NCBI GenBank assembly: GCA_963667175.2
Contig: CAXXXF010000014.1
Location: 288,001-352,000 of the forward strand
Direction: 5' to 3'
Source: Candidatus Latescibacterota bacterium
GTDB taxonomy: Bacteria; Latescibacterota; UBA2968; GCA-2709665
DNA length: 64,000 nucleotides
The position numbers were made by a program, and so were the translations under genes. This document shows, one piece after another, positions 2,382 to 40,810 of this stretch. The notes below the pieces were generated by a model. It did not search any database and was not told the origin of the DNA. It saw only the letters and a list, made by a program, of their open reading frames with translations. Every line of letters starts with the position of its first letter. Position 1 is the first letter of the stretch.

Positions 2382-3498
2382 TTACGCCTCTCCCTTCTGT
2401 TCCAGAAACGCCCGCATGAAGCCGTCCAGATCCCCGTCCATGACGTCCTGAACACCTGACGTCTCGAATCCGGTCCGGAGGTCTTTGACGAGCTGATAGG
2501 GGTGGAGCACGTAGTTGCGGACCTGGCTTCCGAACTCGATCTTCTTCTTGTCCTTCTCGATCTCCGCGCGGGCCTTCTCTTCCTCCTCCCTGTAGTGCTG
2601 GTACAGCCTGGCTTTGAGGATTTTCATGGCGGAGTTCCGGTTCTTGTGCTGCGAACGTTCGTTCTGACACTGAACCACGATACCCGTGGGATGGTGCGTG
2701 ATCCGTACGGCCGAGTCGGTCTTGTTCACGTGCTGCCCGCCAGCCCCGCTGGATCGATAGGTATCCACACGGATATCCTCCGGCTGGATCTCCACCTCGA
2801 TATCGCCCTCCGCCTCGGGATACACGGAAACAGACGCGAAGGACGTATGTCGCCTGCGGCCGGAATCGAACGGCGAAAGCCGAACCAGCCGGTGTACCCC
2901 CATTTCAGATTTGAGGTATCCGTACGCGTATTCTCCCTTCATTTCGATGACCACGCTCTTGACGCCGGCCGTCTCCCCCGGAAGAAGGTCCAGCACGTCC
3001 GCCCGGAAACCGCGGCGTTCGGCCCAACGGCTGTACATCCTCATCAGCATCTGCGCCCAGTCGGCCGATTCCGTGCCGCCCGCCCCGGGATGGATTGCCA
3101 GGATGGCATCCAGACGATCCTCCTTATCGCCCATCATATGCCGGAATTCAAGCACTTCAAGCTCCGCCGCCAGCGCCCCGTGTTCCCGGTGAAGGTCCCG
3201 CAGCGTCTCGTCGTCCTTCTCTTCGCGGACAAGATCGTATAACTCCTCCAGTTCCGTGAGCCGCTCATCCAGCCCACGCCATCCGGTTGCCCAATCTTTG
3301 TGGCCATTCACTTCATCGATGATCTGCCTGGCGCGTTCCCGATCGTCCCAGAATCCCGGACGCTCCATCGACCTTTCGAGTTCGGCGATCCGGGCTTCCC
3401 GGGATACCAGGTCAAAGAAACCTCCGGAGATTTTCCAGCCGGTCGCGGCTTTCGGCCAACCCGGATTTCAAATCGGTAAACTGCAGATCGACTGCCAT
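2382..3498 (-). CDS. prfB: Peptide chain release factor 2, translated by programmed +1 frameshift
   Basis: GGQ motif and SPF tripeptide; a short ORF from ATG 3498 ends in CTT TGA C (3417-3411) and continues in the +1 frame into the long ORF. Confidence 0.96.
3411..3425 (-). promoter_or_regulatory. RF2 autoregulatory +1 frameshift site (internal SD GGAGG plus CTT TGA C)
   Basis: Minus strand reads GGAGG TTT CTT TGA C, the canonical prfB shift signal. Confidence 0.93.
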
Positions 3499-3543
3499 AT
3501 CCGACAACTCCTTTCAGTGACAGAACAGAGCCCGACCTCTGTC

Positions 3544-4203
3544 TTACCTGAGGTCAATCACTTCGACACCGTCGGGCGGCACGAATGTGAACAGATCCGG
3601 TTTCAACTTCCCGTCCACTTTCAAACGGCTGATTTCGTACGTGGTCACATCGTCGTTCAGATTCAGGTACTCCGCCCGGCGGACGAGCCAGAGCTTTCTG
3701 TCTACCCACAGGCGGATACGGGAGATATAACTCTCTTCCTCCCTGGCCGTCAATTCCACGCGGTAACAGCGCTTGCCGTCAACGCGCTCTTCTCCCGCAA
3801 GCCGCGGGTCGTAGCGCGCCTCGTACCCTCCCAGCAGAACGAGATCGAAGAGCAGCTTCTCGTAACTCCTGTCGCCGGTTGCCCGATCGTAGCTGCTCAG
3901 CAGTACCTGTTCGTTCTCCGGCGTGTAGTTCCAGGCGCGTTCGCCATCGGACACCACCGTCTGCACCCGTGTCTCGAAGCGAAACTGATTCGGTTTCCGG
4001 ACGTACATGCGGCCGCCCAGTTCCGTCTTCTGATCGACGAGTTTCCAGTAGTGGCTCTTCCTGAACCTGGCGCTGATGCTCGTAAGCTTTTCATATCGCT
4101 GCTGTTGCCTGCGAATCACCTCTCGGCCGTCGATGCCGCGCACGTCCTCGGGCGCCAGAACCGCGCACGCGAAAAACAGCATTTTGAGCCAGCCGACGAC
4201 CAT
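3544..4203 (-). CDS. lolA: Outer-membrane lipoprotein carrier protein LolA family
   Basis: G.M.VRKPNQFRFE, QTVVSDGERAWNY.P..EQV, C-terminal LFTFVPPDGVEVID; follows ftsK as usual. Confidence 0.85.
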   Translation of the reverse strand: MVVGWLKMLFFACAVLAPEDVRGIDGREVIRRQQQRYEKLTSISARFRKSHYWKLVDQKTELGGRMYVRKPNQFRFETRVQTVVSDGERAWNYTPENEQVLLSSYDRATGDRSYEKLLFDLVLLGGYEARYDPRLAGEERVDGKRCYRVELTAREEESYISRIRLWVDRKLWLVRRAEYLNLNDDVTTYEISRLKVDGKLKPDLFTFVPPDGVEVIDLR

Positions 4204-4292
4204 GCGCCTACCCTCGCGTAAATTGCCTGCCGGAACCACCTGGCGCGCCGTCGCCCGCCTCGGTCCGCCCTTCGCCGCTCGCCATCCGGCAT

Positions 4293-6644
4293 TCACGCCG
4301 CATCGGGATCGTCCTCGTCGTGCCGGTCCAGGTACTCAATGCCGACCAGCACCTCCCGCCCCTTGCTGCCGCCGTCCGACGGCCCGACGATTCCGGCCTG
4401 CTCCAGCTCATCCACCAGACGCGCGGCACGGGCGTACCCCACCTTCATGCGGCGCTGCAGCAGCGAGGCAGACCCCTGCTGATGCGTAACGACCAGTCGC
4501 AACGCCTCGTCGAACCGCTTGTCGCGGGTCCCCTCGGCAAGCGTCAGTTCGTTTTCGTCCACGCCGAGATCCAGCTGTTCCAGAGCCACGCCCTGTCCGC
4601 TCACCCATTCCACCAGGCGTTCGGTCTCCTCGGTTGTCATGTTCGCGCCGTGAACGCGCACGGGTTCCGGTTTGCCCGCGGGCATGAACAGCATATCGCC
4701 GCGGCCCAGGAGCTTCTCGGCGCCGTTGCAGTCCAGGATGGTGCGAGAATCCACTTTCGATGCCACGCGAAACGCGATGCGCGACGGGAAGTTCGCCTTG
4801 ATCGTTCCGGTGATGACGTTAACGGACGGCCGTTGCGTCGCCAAGATCAGATGGATCCCCACCGCACGGGCCATCTGCGCCAGCCGGGCCAGCGAATCCT
4901 CGATGTCCGCGGGCGCCGTCATCATCAGGTCCGCGAGCTCATCGACCACAACGACGATATAAGGCAACTTCGACGCCACCTCACGACGGTCTTCTTCGGT
5001 ATTCGCCTCCGCCCGCATCTTATCCAGTTTGTTGTTGAAGTCCGTGATGTTCCGGACGTTGTACTGCGCCAGGTTTCGATAGCGGTCCTCCATTTCCGCC
5101 ACCGTCCACCGCAACGCCTCGGACGCCTTTTGTGGTTCCGTGACCACCGGCGCCAGCAGATGTGGAATGCTGTTGTAGATCGACAATTCCAGCATCTTCG
5201 GATCCACCATGATGAAACGGACCTCTTCGGGTCGGCACCGCACGAGTATGCTGGTGATCAGCACGTTGATGCATACCGACTTCCCGCTGCCCGTCGCGCC
5301 GGCGATCAACAGGTGGGGCATGGACGCCAGGCTGGTGCAGACGGATTCTCCGGTGGCGGATTTGCCCAACGCCAGCATCAGCCTGTCGTCGGCGCCATGA
5401 AAGGCATCGGATTCCAGAATCTCCCGCAGGAAGACGGTTGACGGATTTGCATTCGGAACCTCGATTCCCACCGCCGCTTTGCCGGGGATCGGCGCCTGAA
5501 TACGGATGCTTCGCGCCTTCATCACCAGCGCGAGGTCGTCCGAAAGATTGACAATGCGGTTCACCTTCACCCCGCGCGGCGGCTGCACTTCGTATCCGGT
5601 GACGACGGGCCCCGGATTCACCTGAACCACCTTGCCTTCGATACCGAAACTGCTCAGACTGTGTTCGAGGGTCTGCGCCCCTTCCAGCAGAACCGACCGG
5701 TCGGGTCCCTCTTCCGTTTGCGCGGGCTCGTTCAGCAGTTCCGGGTCAGGCAGCCGGTACTCGACGTCTTCGCCTTCCGGCGCCTCCATCTTCCGCTTCG
5801 GTGCGGACGCGGCAGCTATTTCGACGGGGTCTGCAACGATTTCGGGATCGAGTGACGGCGCCGGTTCCTCATCCGGTTCATCCACGTTGTCGTAAGCGGG
5901 AAACGGCTCGGAGAGCGTGTCTTCGGGCACGACGACGGGTTCCGGCCCGGCCTCGTTCCAGGGCTCGTCCTCCTGCGGCGGCAGGACGGGTTGCGTCCGC
6001 TCCGATTCCCGGCCTTCCTCGCTTTGTGCCGGTTCCGGGACCAGGGATGCGGCCTCGCCGTTCGTTCCGGTCCGGTTTTTCTTCGCACGTGCCGCCCACA
6101 GGTCCGGAATCCGGGAAAAGCGAAGGCCGGTCAGGAGCATGAAGAACACCAGAAACAGGGCGCTCAATAGAATATACGCCCCGACAAGGCCAAGATAGGG
6201 AACCAGAATTCTGGACGCCAGGGTCACGCCCAACCACCCGCCCATCAGGAACGAAAGGTGGGATTCCCCTCGCGAAGGCACGCCCGTCGCGCCGCAATAT
6301 ATCACCACCAGGGCCAGCAACAAGAGGCTGCGGGAGACAAGAGGCAGGGCGGGATGGTCTCTGAAACGGTTCCAACCCCACATCAGGACGATGACGACCA
6401 GCACGTAGGCGCAATGACCGACCGCGAACAGAAGATAGAAGGAAACCTGGCTGCCGATCCATCCCGCCATATTCTCCGTCAGTTCCGGCGCACGGCCCGA
6501 ATTCGGGGGATCCTGAGGGGAATGCGTAACCAGGCTTACCGCCATCAGCAACGCGACCGCGAATAGGAGCACCCCGCTGACCTGATTGACCAGATCCGGC
6601 TTATCATCCAATTCTTCGGTGACTTCAAACGGTTCCTTTCTCAT
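4293..6644 (-). CDS. ftsK: DNA translocase FtsK
   Basis: N-terminal TM domain, MPHLLIAGATGSGKS, VVDELADLM, ATQRPSV, gamma domain SASLLQRRMKVGYARAARL. Confidence 0.96.
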   Translation of the reverse strand: MRKEPFEVTEELDDKPDLVNQVSGVLLFAVALLMAVSLVTHSPQDPPNSGRAPELTENMAGWIGSQVSFYLLFAVGHCAYVLVVIVLMWGWNRFRDHPALPLVSRSLLLLALVVIYCGATGVPSRGESHLSFLMGGWLGVTLASRILVPYLGLVGAYILLSALFLVFFMLLTGLRFSRIPDLWAARAKKNRTGTNGEAASLVPEPAQSEEGRESERTQPVLPPQEDEPWNEAGPEPVVVPEDTLSEPFPAYDNVDEPDEEPAPSLDPEIVADPVEIAAASAPKRKMEAPEGEDVEYRLPDPELLNEPAQTEEGPDRSVLLEGAQTLEHSLSSFGIEGKVVQVNPGPVVTGYEVQPPRGVKVNRIVNLSDDLALVMKARSIRIQAPIPGKAAVGIEVPNANPSTVFLREILESDAFHGADDRLMLALGKSATGESVCTSLASMPHLLIAGATGSGKSVCINVLITSILVRCRPEEVRFIMVDPKMLELSIYNSIPHLLAPVVTEPQKASEALRWTVAEMEDRYRNLAQYNVRNITDFNNKLDKMRAEANTEEDRREVASKLPYIVVVVDELADLMMTAPADIEDSLARLAQMARAVGIHLILATQRPSVNVITGTIKANFPSRIAFRVASKVDSRTILDCNGAEKLLGRGDMLFMPAGKPEPVRVHGANMTTEETERLVEWVSGQGVALEQLDLGVDENELTLAEGTRDKRFDEALRLVVTHQQGSASLLQRRMKVGYARAARLVDELEQAGIVGPSDGGSKGREVLVGIEYLDRHDEDDPDAA

Positions 6645-17758: not shown

Positions 17759-19399
17759 ATGGCGAAGGGTCGACGAAAAAAGACCAGGACGGATGCCGAA
17801 TCCAGCGAAGCTACGGATTTCCGATCCAAACTATGGGCGATGGCAGACGCGTTGCGGGGCAGCATGGACGCCGCCGAATACAAGCACGTCGTCCTGGGTC
17901 TGATCTTCCTCAAGTACATTTCGGACGCGTTCGAGGAAGCCCATGCCAGGCTCGTGGAAGAAATCGCTGAAGGAGCAGACCCGGAAGACCCTGACGAGTA
18001 TCGCGCCCAGAGCATCTTCTGGGTGCCGCCGGAAGCGCGTTGGAAACAGCTTCAGGCGCAGGCGCGGCAACCAGCCATCGGACGTGCGGTTGACGATGCA
18101 ATGGCCGCCATAGAACGGGATAATCCCGTGCTCAAGGACGTCTTGCCAAAGGACTATGCCCGTCCCAACCTGGACAAGACTCGCCTGGGGCAGGTGGTGG
18201 ACCTGGTTACCAACATTAACGTGGGCGGGGCAAAAGCCCGGGCGACGGACGTGCTCGGAAGCGTCTACGAGTACTTCCTGGAGCAATTCGCACTGGCTGA
18301 GGGCCGGAAGGGCGGCGAGTTTTACACCCCGCGCTCGGTAGTGCGTCTGCTGGTTGAGATGCTGGAACCCTACAAGGGGCGGGTCTACGACCCGTGTTGC
18401 GGCTCCTCGGGGATGTTCGTTCAGTCGATGGCGTTCATTGACGCCCATACCGGTGGGATACCCTCACCCGACGCTACGCGTCACCCTCTCCCAAAGGGAG
18501 AGGGTATGACTGTAGATAAGGCAGGCGGCGGAAGGGGCGATATCTCTATCTACGGACAGGAGTCCAACTACACCACCTGGCGAATGGCAAGGATGAACCT
18601 CGCGATTCGCGGCATCGACGGCCGAATCGAGCACGGGGACAGCTTCCACAACGACCGGCATCCGGACATGAAGGCCGACTACATCCTCGCCAATCCGCCC
18701 TTCAACGTGTCGGACTGGGGCGGCGACAGGTTGCGCGAGGACAGACGGTGGGAATTTGGCGTCCCACCCGCAGGTAACGCGAATTTTGCGTGGGTGCAGC
18801 ACTTCCTTTCTCACCTTGCGCCGCGCGGCATCGCCGGCTTCGTACTGGCCAACGGCTCCATGTCGTCCAACCAGTCGAACGAGGGGGAAATCCGGAAGAA
18901 TATCATCGAGGCCAACCTCGTGGACTGCATCGTCGCCCTGCCCGGCCAACTCTTCCGGTCGACGCAGATCCCCGCGTGTCTGTGGTTTCTGTCAAGGGCG
19001 CCCTCACCCGGGGGAGGCGCGAGGGTGCGCGGTGGCGAAACCCTCTTCATCGACGCCCGAAAGCTGGGTCATCTGGTCGACCGGACGCACAGGGACCTCT
19101 CGCCGGAAGACATCGCCCGGGTCGCGGACACCTACCACGCCTGGCAAAACGGAGAGGGCTACGACGACGTTCCAGGGTTCTGCAAGAGCGCATCGCTCGA
19201 AAAGATCCGTAAACACGGCCACGTCCTCACGCCCGGCCGCTACGTCGGCGCTAAGCCGCAGCCGGAAGATGGTGAACCCTTTGAGGAGAAGATGTCCCGT
19301 CTCGCGAAGCAGTGGCGCGAACAGCAGGTCGAGGCCGCAAAGCTGGATGCCGCTATTGAGAAGAATCTGAGAAAGCTTGGCTTTGGAGACGATCGATGA
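17759..19399 (+). CDS. hsdM: Type I RM N6-adenine methyltransferase subunit
   Basis: [38 protein letters not shown]. Confidence 0.96.
18461..18504. repeat. R1 repeat copy embedded in frame in hsdM
   Basis: ccctcacccgacgctacgcgtcaccctctcccaaagggagaggg, read as [15 protein letters not shown]. Confidence 0.85.
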
Positions 19400-19614
19400 C
19401 CTACACTGACGATGAGATCAAACGCCAACTTCGTCTGGGCGAGGACAGCCAGTGGGAGTTCAAACGGAACGAATTTTCCGGGAACCGGCTGCGAAATCCT
19501 GGCCGCGATGATTGGGCCGACGAGATCGCCGCCTTTGCCAACTCGAACGACGGCACACTGCTTTATGGCGTCACTGACGCGGGGGATATTCAGGGCATGT
19601 CGCGCGAGCATTGA
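19396..19614 (+). pseudogene. Truncated AlbA_2/Schlafen DNA-binding domain (5' duplicate of the gene at 20406)
   Basis: Near-identical to the first ~70 codons of 20406-22148, then stops. Confidence 0.8.
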
Positions 19615-20314: not shown

Positions 20315-20322
20315 ACGGCGAA

Positions 20323-20409
20323 TGGCGCGAACAACAGGCGGAGGCCGCAAAGCTGGATGCTGCGATTGCGGTAAATCTCAAAAAGCTTGGCTTTGGAGAC
20401 GATCGATGA
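20323..20409 (+). repeat. Remnant copy of the hsdM 3' end ([28 protein letters not shown])
   Basis: Aligns with 19313-19399. Confidence 0.88.
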
Positions 20410-22148
20410 CCCACACTGACGATGAGATCAGACGCCAACTTCGTCTGGGCGAGGACAGCTACTGGGAGTTCAAGCAGATCGAATTTTCCGGGAACCGGCT
20501 GAGAAATCCTGGCCGCGATGACTGGGCCGACGAGATCGCCGCTTTTGCCAACTCGAACGGCGGCACACTGCTATATGGCGTCACTGACGCGGGGGATATA
20601 CAGGGCATGTCGCGTGAACAGATGAACGTGCTGGAACGCACGATCGTCGAGCTGTGTACTCAATCGATCAAGCCCCCGCTTTTCGACGTCGTAATCACGC
20701 GTCACGAACTGGATGGCAAAGCACTGTTGTCCGTCTCCGTAGCCAGAGGCGCCGCGCAATACGACAGCCCGGGTGGCAGTTTCCGGCGCGTGGGCAGTTC
20801 CAAACGTCAAATGGGCAGCGACGAACGCATGCGCCTGGCACAACAGCGCGGTCAGGCCCGTTTTCGCTGGTTTGACGAGCAGCCCCTGCCTCAGACCGGG
20901 TTCCGCACGCTGGACGAGGCACTTTGGAAACCCTTGCTCAGCGTGAGCGGGAGGGCCGAACCCCATACGGCCCTAGAAAAACTGGCATTGTTGGGCAGGG
21001 ACGAGGACGGCGCAGTTCGGGCCACTGTGGCTGGGATTCTCCTTTGCACCCACGCGCCTGAGGAGTGGCTTCCCAGCGCTTGCATCACCGCGACCCATTA
21101 TCGCGGCGAGGACCGGGCATCCGGCCAACTCGATGCGCAGATCATCACCGGGCCGATCAACCGGCAGGTGGCGGACGCAATGGCATTTGTAATGCGCAAC
21201 ATGCGCGTTGGGGCGTACAAGAAACCCGCCCGAATGGACCTTCCGCAGTACAGTGCCGAAGCACTTTTCGAGGCGATCGTAAATGCCGTCGCCCATCGGG
21301 ATTATACGATACGAGGCAGTCGAATTCGAGTGTCCATGTTTGCCGACCGCGTGGAAATCAACTCGCCGGGCGGGTTGGCCAACAACCTCACCATCGACAG
21401 CATGGCGGCACGGCAGGCAACGCGCAACGAAACCATCGCGTCCGCGCTCGGGCGAATGCCCGTTGGAGACATTCCCGGGTCTGAAATGCGTCAATTCTTC
21501 ATGGAACGCCGCGGCGATGGTGTTCCCATTATCCTGCGCGAGACCGAGGCGTTGAGCGGTAAACCCCCCAGGTATTGGCTACTTGGCGAGTCAGACCTCT
21601 TTCTTACGTTGCCCGCCAGGGACACCAGTGCCACGCCAGCCACTGTCGTGGTGACGGTACGACGAGATGGTCGCCCGATTTCGGGCGCCGATTCGCTGGC
21701 GATTTTTCCCGATAACACCTGGATACGGGCCACGACGGACGAGAATGGAGAAGCGGCGATGGACCTGTACGCGACAAATCTGCCCATGACCGTGTTCGTC
21801 GCAGCCGGGGGCTATAAAGCATACGTTGAACAAGGGTGGGTTCCGACGAACGGCGCGCTGGCTGTGGAAGTCAAACCGCTTTCCGGCGGCGGCGCGGTGA
21901 TTTTTCCCGAGGCAACCGGCAAGATTCCGGGGCTCAAGGGACAGCTTAATCCCATTCGAGACGCACATGACCGGACCTACCTTTATGCCTCGAACATCGC
22001 CATCAACCAGGGCCAGCCGCAACCCGTTCACTTTTCGTTCGGTGAAGACTTGCGGCTCATAGATTCGAATGGCGTCGAAACGTGCGTGCGCGTCGTCCAA
22101 ATCGAAGGCAGATCGGCATTGGTGGAATATCGGCCATTCAAGGCGTGA
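20406..22148 (+). CDS. AlbA_2/Schlafen DNA-binding plus HATPase_c_4 (RecG-C-like) protein with extra C-terminal domain
   Basis: [46 protein letters not shown]. Confidence 0.82.
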
Positions 22149-22230: not shown

Positions 22231-22653
22231 ATGCGCATCAACACCGATTTCCTGATTCGATGCATCAACACACTGGAGTCGGCCTTCAAGGAGTTGCAGC
22301 AGCGAGAGCCATCCGATACCTTCTACGACATATTCCGCGCAGCTTCGGTCAAAGAGTTCGAGATTGTGCTGGAACAGTCCGGCAGCCTGTTGAAAAAGCG
22401 CCTAAGGCCCTACCTGGCCAGCAACAGACACGCGGACAGGCTTACGTTCAAGAATGCGTTCCACCACGCCGCCAAACACGACCTCATCTCCGTGGAAGCC
22501 TGTGAACGCTGGTTTGCTTACCGGGACGACCGGAACGACACCGCCCACGACTATGGCGAAGCCTTTGCCGAAACCACACTCACATTGCTTCCGCAATTCA
22601 TCGTCGATGCCAGAAATCTGGCGAAAATTATCGCAGAGGTCGACGATGACTGA
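22231..22653 (+). CDS. Nucleotidyltransferase substrate-binding (HEPN-like, HI0074-type) protein
   Basis: VKEFEIVLEQSG.LL, RNDTAHDYG (R-x4-H HEPN motif); overlaps the MNT-hsdS start. Confidence 0.85.
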   Translation: MRINTDFLIRCINTLESAFKELQQREPSDTFYDIFRAASVKEFEIVLEQSGSLLKKRLRPYLASNRHADRLTFKNAFHHAAKHDLISVEACERWFAYRDDRNDTAHDYGEAFAETTLTLLPQFIVDARNLAKIIAEVDDD

Positions 22654-24694
22654 CAGATTGGACCTGCCGCAGAGATACCGGAGCATACTCGAGGGGCTGC
22701 TGCGTGAGCATGTGCCCGACGCCGAGGTGTGGGCCTACGGCAGCCGCATCACAGGCGAGAGCCACGAGGGCAGCGACCTGGATCTGGTGGTGAGGGGACC
22801 CGGACTGGAGCCCCTGGGCGACGGCTTCTTCAGCCTGCTGGAAGCGATCGAGGAATCGAACATCCCGATCCTCGTCCAGGCGCACGACTGGGCACTGTTA
22901 CCTGAGAGTTTTCACCCAGAGATAGAGCGGGACTACGTGGTGGTTCAGGGGGACCAAAGCGGAACAGAAAGCAGGTGGACAGCCACCACTTGGGGCGAAC
23001 TTGCAACGTTGGAATATGGAAAGTCGCTCCGTGGGTATGATTCGGCTGAAGGACCTTACAGGGTCTACGGAACCAATGGACCAATCGGCAAAAACAACGA
23101 GCCGCTCTGTCGGCATGCCAGCGTCATCATTGGGCGCAAGGGGGCGTACAGGGGTGTCCATTACTCCCCTGATCCGTTCTTTGTAATCGATACTGCATTT
23201 TACATGAAACCAAAGGTAGACCTCGATACTCGGTGGGCGTACTACCAACTGCTCACTCAGGATATCAATGGCCTCGATAGCGGCTCTGCAATACCGTCAA
23301 CGAGCCGTGAGGATTTTTATGGTCTGCCAGTTGAAGTCCCACCTCTGAAGGAACAACGTGCTATCGCTCATGTTTTGGGAACGCTGGACGACAAGATCGA
23401 GTTGAACCGGCGGATGAACGAAACGCTGGAGGATATGGCGCGGGCGCTCTTCAAGTCGTGGTTCGTCGACTTCGACCCTGTCCACGCCAAAGCCGCGCTC
23501 AGTCAAACTGCAGGTTCTTCATCGCGCGCCCACCCACCTATCACTCCCCCCTTGGGGGGGAGTCGGCAAGACGAGGGCGTCAGCCCGACGTCGCGCCGGT
23601 GGGGGGATATCCGTCGGAAATACACCCGAGAAACCCTCGAAAAAGCCCGCTCACTGCGCCAGACCCAAACCGACGCCGAGGGCCTCCTGTGGCACTACCT
23701 GCGAAATAAGCGATTGGGCGGATACAAATTCCGCCGCCAGCATCCCATGGGCAAGTACATCGCGGATTTTGTTTGTCTGTCGCGGAAGCTGATCATCGAA
23801 CTGGATGGCGGCCACCACGCGAAAGAGAACGACTACGATGAAGAGCGAGACCGCTTCTTGCAGAACGAGGGCTATCGCGTTATGCGGTTCTGGAACAACG
23901 AGATTCTTGAGAGTTGTATGGGCGTGTTGGAGAAAGTGTTCGACGCATTGGAGTTCCCCCCTCCGCCGCCGGAGGCGGCGACTCCCCCCCAAGGGGGGAG
24001 TGATGGCGAGGTGTCATCGGGTTGGACAATCGAACGGGCTCGCGCGTATCTCGACAAGATGGACCCGTCCATCGCGGCGCTGTTCCCCGATCGCTTCGTC
24101 GATTCGGAATTGGGCGAGATCCCGGAGGGGTGGGAGGTGAAGGCGTTGGGGGATGTAGCGAATCAACGGAGAAACGGACTAACTCCAGAGCAGATTGACC
24201 CAAGTGCGCCGTATATAGGGCTTGAACATATGCCCCAACGCTCCATTGCACTTTCGGAATGGACCAACGCGGATGGACTCGTTAGCGGAAAGAGCAGATT
24301 TGAAGAAGGTGACATCCTGTTTGGCAAACTAAGGCCTTACTTCCACAAGGTAGGCGTCGCTCCAGTCGAAGGAGTATGCTCGACCGATATAGTTGTTATA
24401 TCACCAATATCTGCGCATTGGTTCGGGGTTGTCCTTGGACACACGTCCAGCAAGCAATTCGTTGACTATACGGATGCCGCATCAACCGGTACCAGAATGC
24501 CGCGCACCAAATGGAAAGACATGGCATTATATGGGTTTGCGCTACCGGGCGTCGAAATCGCCTGTGGCTACAATGCACTCATCCAACCCTGGATTGAGAG
24601 AATGCTGTCAGCGATCCACGAATGTCGAATGCTCGCTAAGCAAAGGGTTGAACTGCTGCCGAGGTTGGTTTCCGGCATTGTGCGGATTGGATAA
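22646..24694 (+). CDS. hsdS: Type I RM specificity subunit with N-terminal MNT domain and in-frame DUF559 nuclease insertion
   Basis: AYGSR...SDLDL (MNT); TRD1 ...EQRAIAHVLGTLDDKIELN; LFKSWFVDF; DUF559; DSELGEIPEGW; TRD2 ...LLPRLVSG. Confidence 0.9.
   Translation: MTDRLDLPQRYRSILEGLLREHVPDAEVWAYGSRITGESHEGSDLDLVVRGPGLEPLGDGFFSLLEAIEESNIPILVQAHDWALLPESFHPEIERDYVVVQGDQSGTESRWTATTWGELATLEYGKSLRGYDSAEGPYRVYGTNGPIGKNNEPLCRHASVIIGRKGAYRGVHYSPDPFFVIDTAFYMKPKVDLDTRWAYYQLLTQDINGLDSGSAIPSTSREDFYGLPVEVPPLKEQRAIAHVLGTLDDKIELNRRMNETLEDMARALFKSWFVDFDPVHAKAALSQTAGSSSRAHPPITPPLGGSRQDEGVSPTSRRWGDIRRKYTRETLEKARSLRQTQTDAEGLLWHYLRNKRLGGYKFRRQHPMGKYIADFVCLSRKLIIELDGGHHAKENDYDEERDRFLQNEGYRVMRFWNNEILESCMGVLEKVFDALEFPPPPPEAATPPQGGSDGEVSSGWTIERARAYLDKMDPSIAALFPDRFVDSELGEIPEGWEVKALGDVANQRRNGLTPEQIDPSAPYIGLEHMPQRSIALSEWTNADGLVSGKSRFEEGDILFGKLRPYFHKVGVAPVEGVCSTDIVVISPISAHWFGVVLGHTSSKQFVDYTDAASTGTRMPRTKWKDMALYGFALPGVEIACGYNALIQPWIERMLSAIHECRMLAKQRVELLPRLVSGIVRIG
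23540..24004 (+). mobile_element. Putative DUF559 (Vsr-like endonuclease) element with perfect 26-bp inverted repeats
   Basis: ATCACTCCCCCCTTGGGGGGGAGTCG (23540-23565) and its exact reverse complement (23979-24004) flank ARSLR..T.AE..LW..LR...FRRQHP..YIADF..IIELDGG.H..D.ERD..L...GY.V.RFWN; span 465 bp = 155 codons. Confidence 0.75.
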
Positions 24695-29975: not shown

Positions 29976-30128
29976 CCCTTCGACAAGCTCAGGGACCTCA
30001 GGATCACGGACCGGCTCGGCTTCTTCGACTCCCCCACAAGGGGGAGTGATGCAGAGGTGTTAACGCTTGTTCATCGTGCGACAGATGAGATCGATGCGGG
30101 CAGACAGGAATGTCTGCCCCACCATCAA
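29976..30128. repeat. Composite palindromic repeat module (R3 CCCTTCGACAAGCTCAGGG + R2 ACTCCCCC..GGGGGAGTGAT + R5 GGGCAGACAGGAATGTCTGCCCCAC)
   Basis: Matches the modules at 38749-38920 and 40529-40810. Confidence 0.8.
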
Positions 30129-33038: not shown

Positions 33039-33398
33039 GACGACCAGGCGATTCTTACCCAAGGATTCGGGGTCCACGTTCGTTGCGCCATCCACGGAAT
33101 TCGTCGAATTAGCGTTTCTGGCGCGGATGTTCATTTTATGAAGGGGGCCGTAGCATTCCCGGCTTGAGCAACTCCCGGCTGGACTCGATCCCGTTGGATT
33201 GCGTTTGTTATCTCACATATTCCCCAACGGAGCGCCTGACAGTTTGATGCCTCACGCCTCGCGATCTTTCGGATGGGCTGAGGCATCATCTTTGTACGCT
33301 TCCGATCCTGAATCGCGTGACGCACGACAAAGCCATTCAGCGTCGGCCCGTCGATGTCCAGGGTACAGACCGATAAACATCCCTTCACAGGAACCCCC

Positions 33399-36563
<3,165 letters not shown>

Positions 36564-38748: not shown

Positions 38749-38920
38749 CCCCCACCGCATCAGCCGTCGCCTGCCCTTCGACAAGCTCAGGGAACCGGCT
38801 CGGCTTCTGCGACTCCCCCTCAAGGGGGAGTGATGGCGCGGCGGTCTTTTCGTAGGTCTCATCACCGACAGAAATCCATCGATGTGGGCAGACAGGAATG
38901 TCTGCCCCACCCTCAAACTG
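38749..38920. repeat. Composite repeat module: R2 with R3 nested, followed by R5
   Basis: ccccaccgcatcagccgtcg..cccttcgacaagctcaggg..cgactccccctcaagggggagtgat...gggcagacaggaatgtctgcccc. Confidence 0.85.
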
Positions 38921-40528: not shown

Positions 40529-40810
40529 CCCACCGCATCAGCCGTCGCCGGCCCTTCGGCCCTTCGACCCTTCGACAGGCTCAGGGACCGCAAGCTCAGG
40601 GAAAGGCTCGGCTTCTGCCTGCCTGCCGCGCTCCGCGTAGCGCAGGCAGGCGACTCCCCCTCAAGGGGGGAGTGATGGCGAGGTGACGGCAAGGCATGCG
40701 TTTCTTATGTCCTTTAATCGAGAGCAATCCATCGACGTGGGCAGACTGGAATGTCTGCCTGCCTGCGCCTGCCAGTGACGCTTTGGCAGGCAGGCCCCAC
40801 CCTCAACCTG
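40529..40810. repeat. Composite repeat module with multiply nested insertions (R2 containing R3-in-R3 and R4; R5 containing R4)
   Basis: Removing 40618-40650 and 40758-40794 restores the host repeats as seen at 38749-38920. Confidence 0.85.

Follow-up and report, generated by a model that had tools for sequence, protein, structure and literature searches.

A hairpin-ended DUF559 nuclease cassette inserted in frame in the type I specificity gene hsdS of a Latescibacterota bacterium

The stretch of DNA analysed here (the window, 64,000 nucleotides (nt) in full, to whose positions all coordinates without a contig name refer) belongs to a 5.52-Mb assembly of a Candidatus Latescibacterota bacterium, hereafter G000, and carries a complete type I restriction system that adjoins ligA. 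The specificity gene of this system, hsdS, contains in its central linker a cassette of 465 nt (23540..24004, + strand) that encodes a nuclease domain of the DUF559 family between inverted GC-rich hairpins, an arrangement that resembles a selfish and probably mobile DNA module of a kind not described before. The host gene, a fusion of an MNT nucleotidyltransferase with HsdS (22646..24694, +), lies in an open frame of 746 residues (22454-24694, +), for which ATG 22646 is the probable start, giving a protein of 682 residues (P0005). This single frame holds the MNT-type nucleotidyltransferase (PF01909), a first target recognition domain (TRD1; PF01420, E 2.3e-17), a central helix, the cassette, and then TRD2 and a C-terminal helix up to the stop; TRD2 aligns with that of the homologues P0029 and P0048. 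With two TRDs, conserved helices, and hsdM and hsdR nearby, the protein has the features expected of an HsdS.

The cassette spans 155 codons, only one of its six frames is open, and in the host protein the insert is flanked by ...LFKSWFVDFDPVHAKA... and ...MDPSIAALFPDRFVDSELGEIPEGW. At its two extremities, 26 nt (23540-23565 and 23979-24004) form exact reverse complements, which a repeat search lengthens to arms of 35 nt at 89% (23531-23565 / 23979-24013), and each arm contains a hairpin with a 9-bp stem (23543-23563 and 23981-24001), the two hairpins starting 438 nt, or 146 codons, apart. Both ends of the cassette carry one derived loop variant, so that the 26-nt repeat stays exact. When up to three mismatches are allowed, the 21-nt hairpin has five matches in the window, representing three sites, two of which are counted on both strands, and none in 100 dinucleotide-preserving shuffles of the window.

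Each end of the insert is a full copy of a short unit that is present elsewhere in the genome without the nuclease, and that has a C-run (ATCCCCCCACCG...) at one end and a hairpin (...CGACTCCCCC-loop-GGGGGGAGTGAT) at the other. The left terminal module (23540..23611, +), made up of ATC, the hairpin 23543-23563, a spacer and a G-run (GGTGGGGGGAT), is an inverted copy of this unit, encodes ITPPLGGSRQDEGVSPTSRRWGD and shares 88-90% DNA identity with three other copies. The right terminal module (23953..24004, +), made up of a C-run (TTCCCCCCTCCG), a short stem, the hairpin 23981-24001 and GAT, is a forward copy, encodes FPPPPPEAATPPQGGSD and in its hairpin part is 89-96% identical to other copies. 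The hairpins point outward and the C/G-runs point toward the nuclease gene, where they form an inner inverted repeat (23593..23969, with arms 23593-23612 / 23950-23969; 20 nt, 80%; no strand assigned) that closely encloses the core of the DUF559 open reading frame (ORF).

The domain itself (23636..23950, +), a Vsr-like PD-(D/E)XK nuclease, matches Pfam PF04480 over profile positions 4-108 of 109, scoring 141.7 bits where the cut-off is 20.6 (E 9.6e-42); it also matches the NCBIfam family NF007294 (E 2.6e-30, under the family cut-off) and the structure PDB 3HRL (E 2.7e-29). It is not a Vsr protein proper, scoring 22.2 bits against the TIGR00632 cut-off of 97.85, and the methyltransferase that adjoins it is the N6-adenine enzyme HsdM, not a cytosine-5 methyltransferase of the kind to which Vsr is linked. 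An earlier note on this DNA, made from the sequence by eye, had placed a complete DUF559 domain in the central spacer of HsdS between exact 26-bp inverted repeats, each itself a hairpin, and had held that the 465-bp span keeps the frame; each of these observations is borne out, the frame running open through to TRD2.

Comparison with homologues indicates that the cassette was added to hsdS. The central linker could be parsed by regular expression in 77 of the 120 homologues listed by a search with TRD1, 5 of the 120 containing PF04480. Sixty-four of the 77 have neither DUF559 nor a long-linker motif, most of them with the canonical linker of 14-20 residues (MEGRDTGLP..., MEGRWRRGESLPGLP...); the exceptions are P0017 (166 residues, an overshoot of the regular expression), P0097 (62 residues, with another repeat inside) and P0001 (45 residues). 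A further eight have a longer linker without DUF559, where a solo or decayed hairpin-coded peptide (TPSQGGSD, ATPSHGGSD and INPPSEGSR are examples) is followed by WTVERARAYLD, and only five carry DUF559. The closest allele, P0003, with a TRD1 that is 92% identical, has a 21-residue segment of the length of one hairpin plus tails, much diverged. Because most homologues have a short linker, and eight only a solo or decayed hairpin peptide, the DUF559 domain is, as judged from these alignments, not ancestral to HsdS and the cassette is an insertion. The search for empty-site alleles that the earlier note had proposed thus succeeded, and the ancestral carriage by all HsdS homologues that it had named as the alternative does not hold. 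Among contigs assembled from four metagenome runs (best share 0.27), one of 1592 nt matches the window to 23506 and restarts exactly at 24005, with 60 other letters between.

Inverted repeats of 26-35 nt might also flip the 413-nt segment that they bound, toggling hsdS between a full-length and a truncated, TRD1-only product, and in the flipped orientation the hsdS frame indeed runs on for 117 codons before a single stop, which would give half an HsdS. Such an inversion switch is nevertheless very improbable: no recombinase was found among the neighbouring genes scanned, stand-alone DUF559 genes, which lack a host gene to toggle, have the same inverted ends, and the metagenome contigs contained no inverted form, save one low-depth 'opposite strands' joint in a metagenome with many copies of the repeat.

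In an AlphaFold model of the host protein (mean predicted local distance difference test score (pLDDT) 71.6, built from 15 sequences) the central helix comprises residues 234-289 and the C-terminal helix residues 636-676. Residues 316-436 are modelled as helices and strands with block pLDDT values of 47-83, most blocks being above 60, and the values fall below 50 at residues 291-331 and 439-458, i.e. in the peptides encoded by the end modules; the second of these low-confidence segments is followed by the WTIERARAYL helix, TRD2 and the C-terminal helix. The model thus predicts that the DUF559 insert is a discrete alpha/beta domain after the central helix, and that its insertion is structurally tolerable. 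No intein, Hint or NUMOD family was found among the six Pfam families in the 746-residue frame; as there is no Hint domain, there is no splicing and the insert stays part of the protein.

The same anatomy recurs widely. With the 155-residue insert as query (E <= 1e-3; counts are of 90%-identity clusters) we obtained matches to 755 longer proteins and to 3416 proteins of near its own length. PF01420, diagnostic here of HsdS, is present in 110 of the best 120 of the 755 longer matches, and the end peptides ITPPL[RG]GS...RRWG and PPPxQPxP...ATPPQGGSD recur in nearly all of the best longer matches, among which identity of the domain is just 55-75%. Of 121 proteins, 109 have the left hairpin translated as TPPxxGS, 5 have it in a shifted frame (SPLEGES) and 7 show neither reading; the frame shift in those 5 points to a constraint on DNA, not peptide. 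The closest stand-alone proteins run from MTPPLRGS... to ...ATPPQGGSD, directly followed by the stop, and since such ORFs begin and end at the hairpins, the ORF is coextensive with the cassette.

Four copies were aligned as DNA, namely those in hsdS of G000 and of its relative G016, one at a non-hsdS site of G002, and an hsdS remnant of G016; only the G002 copy (G002:C47, intergenic) is clearly non-hsdS. Identity among them is 88-96% in the end modules, which in this respect behave like cis-sites, but 67-74% in the ORF core and 27-47% in the flanks outside, and identity of the G000 cassette to the other copies falls from about 90% to 27-47% exactly at both borders. Differences in the ORF core are biased to the third codon position. 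Taken together, these sequence comparisons indicate that constraint acts on the DNA of the cassette ends rather than on the protein.

In-frame hosts are not confined to HsdS. They include DnaE and, in five relatives of G000, HsdM, and further hosts to judge by Pfam content are helicases and one class I aminoacyl-tRNA synthetase; in a Spirochaete HsdS (L043) the in-frame DUF559 was seen directly. The DnaE case (L058, 539-4771) is the DNA polymerase III alpha subunit of an alphaproteobacterial metagenome-assembled genome, in which a frame of 1411 residues contains an in-frame DUF559 between hairpin-coded peptides, the whole lying in a loop that precedes the conserved GVFQFES motif. Among intein hosts, DnaE is a classic one.

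The abundance of HsdS hosts could be taken to mean that HsdS-DUF559 is a domesticated fusion, a functional form of the specificity subunit whose nuclease serves restriction and the Pro/Gly-rich segments are just linkers. The architecture is very common and its ORF intact, the third-position bias between copies indicates purifying selection on the domain, the presence of DUF559 in frame in HsdM of five relatives makes the link with type I systems a recurrent one, and the model keeps the TRDs and helices intact. We nonetheless regard this explanation as quite unlikely. The locus encodes its own HsdR (hsdR, 33354..36563, +, with HSDR_N, SWI2_SNF2 and T1RH-like_C), so the system already possesses a nuclease for restriction; restriction genes are not the only places where the same cassette is found, as shown by the intergenic G002 site, DnaE and stand-alone ORFs; the supposed linkers are conserved as DNA palindromes, more so than the domain itself, and are sometimes read in another frame; and alleles that have lost the domain keep a decaying hairpin scar.

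PF04480 was detected in 27 of 41 genomes compared. The hsdS-borne cassette was found in G000 and G016, and another DUF559 subfamily lies in frame in hsdM of G002, G006, G007, G013 and G016, with hairpins of its own (CCCTCTCCC type) and an outer CCCTCACCC/GGGTGAGGG repeat. The hsdM gene of G000 (17759..19399, +), part of the same type I system as the hsdS cassette, has at the position of that other cassette an in-frame scar (about 18998-19030, +) that is made of the outer repeat arms (CCCTCACCC ... GAGGGTG), and farther upstream it also carries, in frame, a solo hairpin module (18458-18508, hairpin 18483-18505, +) that encodes RHPLPKGEG. Hairpins are found at 3.93/kb near the DUF559 genes of the relatives, as compared with 0.62/kb farther away and with a G000 background of 0.153/kb, the latter from a contig sample of about half of the genome.

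Two further arrangements were noted in the relatives. In G016 (L035, G016:C1:2293000-2304000, 2605-5010) hsdM contains, besides its DUF559 cassette and farther on, an in-frame GIY-YIG domain enclosed by an inverted repeat of CCTGCCTGC/GCAGGCAGG type, so that other small nuclease genes may share an in-frame, repeat-capped lifestyle. In G015, stand-alone DUF559 genes of another subfamily stand in tandem about 560 nt apart (L012, G015:C1:3772596-3775910; and G015:C1:3759412 and 3759976), with the same hairpin modules ahead of every gene, and so form arrays, not single cassettes.

The association of hairpins with DUF559 extends well beyond this lineage. A search for related loci gave 47, from Alpha-, Beta- and Gammaproteobacteria, Nitrospirae, Saccharibacteria, Spirochaetes and others, of which 37 were analysed (10 short partial matches being excluded), three more lacking the core motif, so that 34 remained. 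With hairpins defined as GC-rich and perfect with stems of at least 8, there are 62 in 19,040 nt (3.26/kb) within about 250 nt of the domain, versus 16 in 133,670 nt (0.12/kb) at more than 400 nt from it. Hairpins stand on both sides of DUF559 in 21 of the 34 loci, and so the hairpin flanks whose lack in homologous genes would have told against the earlier note are common there. Most pairs are inverted, and typical ones are exact inverted copies at fixed distances, e.g. CCCCTCTCCCCTTGCGGGAGAGGGG upstream and its reverse complement downstream; the stem sequences vary by lineage, and both arms change together. A strict test of orientation with equal lengths, on 20 two-sided loci, classed 8 as inverted and 4 as direct and left 8 unclassified, of which five (L051, L066-L069) are by eye inverted pairs with unequal stems. 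We also checked five genomes (G041-G045) for CCCTCTCCC-type hairpins and DUF559 genes. G045 has just two such hairpins, both flanking its single DUF559, and in G042 three of four lie at the DUF559 gene; G044, G043 and G041 have 10, 27 and 38 hairpins versus 1, 3 and 2 DUF559 genes, and these hairpins include gene-free inverted pairs 30-240 nt apart.

Nuclease-free copies of the repeat that the earlier note had listed in the window at 30026-30050, 38749-38834 and 40529-40676 (all +) do each contain the hairpin (at 30028-30047, 38812-38831 and 40653-40673, respectively), and all three lie outside credible genes. The first is a hairpin end, whose repeat body lies upstream from about 29975; the second is a unit running from the C-run end to the hairpin plus GAT; and the third is a unit with extra internal modules. 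A CCCCCACCG-type end is present at 38749 and 40529, and the GAGTGATG.. tail in nuclease-free copies. A second hairpin family (GGGCAGACnGGAATGTCTGCCC) is located at 30098-30119, 38886-38907 and about 40738-40760, about 50-60 nt downstream of each of the three copies, which suggests a recurring composite arrangement.

In the whole assembly a regular expression for the hairpin finds 44 copies and the stricter 26-nt end 40. All 14 other genus genomes contain the 26-nt end, in 4-30 copies; beyond the genus it is present in 3 of 7 genomes of the family's other genera and in none of 19 of the sister family. The earlier note had named a repeat abundance that does not track DUF559 as a refutation, and the abundance indeed does not track it: G005, G008 and G010 have 22, 14 and 21 repeat copies and no PF04480 match at E <= 1e-5, and in G003, G004 and G014 PF04480 was seen only as a weak partial match inside a protein of ~1300 residues. 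Its broader proposal, that DUF559 drives the spread of the repeat family, accordingly finds only partial support. The conserved ends and the enrichment of hairpins at the gene agree with it, and the independence of repeat abundance from DUF559 and the single hairpin of the nuclease-free copies do not.

Most nuclease-free copies in G000 are embedded in a composite repeat of ~240 bp with sharp borders, represented by 68 BLAST rows; 19 full-length copies were aligned. The hairpin unit (ACTCCCCC) lies in the middle of this repeat (e.g. C3:428458-428704), and its right flank (GATTGG.ACATCGAACGGGC.CGCGC) resembles the hsdS DNA encoding WTIERARAY just past the cassette. Rfam gave only a sub-threshold match (whalefall-1, 19.9 bits versus 37) for the cassette locus together with a locus of the composite repeat and a gene of the type discussed next. 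Three genes in G000 resemble those of REP-associated tyrosine transposases (RAYTs, where REP stands for repetitive extragenic palindromic): G000:C7:59528-60130, C7:62896-63498 and C3:192478-193107. The C3 copy scores 100.6 bits versus a cut-off of 80 and sits among another hairpin family; the C7 score is 44.1 bits, and C7:62896-63498 is flanked by one full and one partial ~240-bp composite repeat. RAYT-like proteins are encoded in 10 of the 14 genus genomes and also in genera without the repeat, and were not found in G002, G003, G009 and G012, which have 22, 12, 6 and 20 repeat copies. A RAYT was rejected as the driver of the repeat, as its distribution does not follow the repeat, and comparison of the DUF559 and RAYT-like distributions identified no driver.

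These distributions bear on the possibility that DUF559 is passive cargo, the hairpins being REP-like units, or units akin to transposable elements of the miniature inverted-repeat type (MITEs), that something else, such as a RAYT or host recombination, moves or maintains, and the nuclease merely lying between two of them, or repeats piling up beside it, with a role of its own, e.g. in Vsr-like repair. The repeat occurs in every genome of the genus regardless of whether DUF559 is detected, each cassette end is a complete nuclease-free unit, so that the cassette looks composite, and the genome does encode RAYT-like proteins, one of them, on C7, flanked by composite repeats. A DUF559 protein of Caulobacter has, in the available text of PMC12907096, a chromosomal DNA-damage phenotype linked to cytosine methylation. 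On the other side, the distribution of the RAYT-like protein (10 of 14 genus genomes) fails to follow the repeat as well, and passive carriage leaves unexplained the case of G045, where the only two hairpins flank DUF559, the hairpins of unrelated sequence at the same places beside DUF559 across phyla, and the stand-alone ORFs that start and end exactly at hairpins. We therefore think it unlikely that DUF559 is a mere passenger.

The anatomy of the cassette, its insertion into hsdS, its recurrence across phyla and hosts, the conservation of its ends and the scars lead us to favour, on balance, the reading that 23540-24004 is one copy of a selfish, probably mobile, palindrome-ended nuclease cassette, in which the DUF559 gene and its inverted hairpin ends form one unit. 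In the scheme that we infer, the cassette would land in frame in the flexible central linker of hsdS and gain expression from the host frame. Its GC-rich hairpin ends, translated to Pro/Gly-rich peptides (TPPLGGS, TPPQGGS), would act as loose linkers, so that HsdS would carry the nuclease as an added domain and could fold all the same. The Vsr-like nuclease may cut or nick at or near palindromes, either its own ends or solo copies elsewhere, with a duplex palindrome, an extruded cruciform or a single-strand hairpin as the substrate, and the break could then promote copying or relocation of the cassette. Loss would occur by recombination between the palindromes, deleting 438 nt and leaving an in-frame solo hairpin that later decays.

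Several observations weigh against such a mobile unit. No target-site duplication and no common target motif outside the hairpins were found in 20 loci or among the four aligned copies, and no movement was observed in the assembled contigs. Copies in differing contexts are ~70% identical in DNA and so give no sign of recent transposition, and the hundreds of HsdS fusions could largely be one old insertion that spread with the conserved central region of hsdS. The presence of the repeat in G005, G008 and G010, which gave no PF04480 match, implies that the nuclease is not needed for repeat maintenance. The nuclease-free copies of G000 have one hairpin, not two, and no two-hairpin deletion derivative of the cassette was found among them. 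Stand-alone genes of another subfamily in the relatives are mostly flanked by direct repeats (2 inverted, 5 direct, 8 other; n=15). Candidate second sites, considered as proof of transposition, also fell away: the 1.62-Mb copy of G016 proved to be a remnant of hsdS, and three short C3 copies are segmental duplicates upstream of paralogous genes.

A bolder version of the proposal, which is conceivable and which we advance only tentatively, is that DUF559 cassettes are a new class of autonomous mobile element. These would be single-ORF units of ~0.45 kb, moved by their own Vsr-like nuclease cutting the terminal palindromes, by restriction-and-rejoin or by cruciform resolution, landing in frame, translated as further domains of their hosts (HsdS, HsdM and DnaE among others), and shedding solo hairpins that seed REP-like populations.

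The locus contains hsdM, a gene with AlbA_2 and HATPase domains, a HepT-like gene, the fusion of MNT with HsdS, one gene whose function is unknown and a pair encoding ThsB-TIR and 8xMP proteins, with hsdR further on. The HepT-like gene (22231-22653, PF08780) overlaps the start of MNT-HsdS at 22646. The MNT is fused in frame to the N terminus of HsdS without a stop, and PF01909 or PF18765 together with PF01420 is present in many homologues; from these sequences a toxin-antitoxin-type MNT joined to a specificity subunit seems to be a genuine architecture and a common one. An ORF of 72 residues (19396-19614) between hsdM and the gene for a 608-residue Schlafen/HATPase_c_4 protein (20322-22148) duplicates the N-terminal AlbA_2 part of that protein and looks like a truncated duplicate. 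Between hsdS and hsdR a ThsB-like TIR protein (PF08937) adjoins an 8xMP membrane protein (PF24838; 27392-28376), and this interval resembles a defence island.

DUF559 is a large family, and if the anatomy seen here, a nuclease with inverted hairpin ends and a coextensive ORF, in frame in restriction subunits and even in DnaE, is conserved, it would provide DUF559 with a biology that can be tested, that of selfish nuclease modules. It would add to introns and inteins a third route by which a nuclease gene can reside inside an essential or conserved gene, and would be a possible source of GC-rich hairpin repeats and of odd Pro/Gly-rich segments in many predicted proteins. For annotation, hsdS and hsdM genes with such inserts are probably intact, not fused or broken. 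The relatives represented by the Neisseria structure 3HRL and by Caulobacter VsrA (PMC12907096) are described, in the available text, as stand-alone genes; the same text reports that the Caulobacter protein damages DNA in cells in which a GC-rich palindromic motif goes unmethylated. The portion available of PMC3424549 assigns DUF559, Vsr and 3R3P to a single PD-(D/E)XK group, a fold class that counts a proven homing endonuclease, I-Bth0305I, among its members and so offers a precedent, and in the available part of PMC9881135 DUF559 is, without comment, 14.3-fold enriched among coding sequences overlapped by predicted inversion repeats. We found no literature that clearly describes mobility, hairpin ends or in-frame insertion of DUF559 in the texts accessible, and supplementary lists, notably those of PMC9881135, may hold relevant entries. 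Within the same scope, the experimental roles found for the family are those of the intron-borne I-Bth0305I (PMC3239194) and the phenotype of Caulobacter VsrA (PMC12907096) only.

Of known systems, the RAYTs and their REP and REPIN repeats (Bertels and Rainey 2011, PMC3116915, as far as its available text goes) provide one comparison. As in that system, a single small gene lies between inverted GC-rich hairpins, and hairpin-only copies, 40-44 in this genome, are scattered, mostly outside genes. In contrast to it, the protein of the cassette is a Vsr-like PD-(D/E)XK nuclease, not a HUH Y1 transposase, matches to Y1_Tnp lying elsewhere in the genome; the cassette ends lie inside the ORF and are translated, with in-frame insertion in host proteins; and hairpin abundance does not follow the DUF559 gene in the genus. 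Terminal inverted repeats are shared with conventional transposons and MITEs, the target-site duplication is not. Rickettsia palindromic elements are palindromic repeats inserted in frame in protein genes and tolerated as extra peptide segments. The cassette resembles these, and in-frame MITEs, in being palindromic, in frame and tolerated, but Rickettsia palindromic elements encode nothing of their own, whereas the cassette has a complete nuclease domain between its two ends. With inteins that contain a homing endonuclease it shares an in-frame nuclease in conserved proteins, expressed via the host gene. The EDxHD homing endonucleases, of which I-Bth0305I, with its Vsr-like catalytic fold, is an example (PMC3239194, available text), resemble the cassette in its predicted fold and in being, on the reading favoured here, likewise selfish nuclease genes that recur at the same site of a conserved gene. 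They occur in group I introns or inteins, or free-standing, with NUMOD DNA-binding modules; the cassette, by contrast, has no intron or intein and lacks a further domain for DNA binding, and its gene product, bounded by the palindromic ends, is kept in the mature protein.

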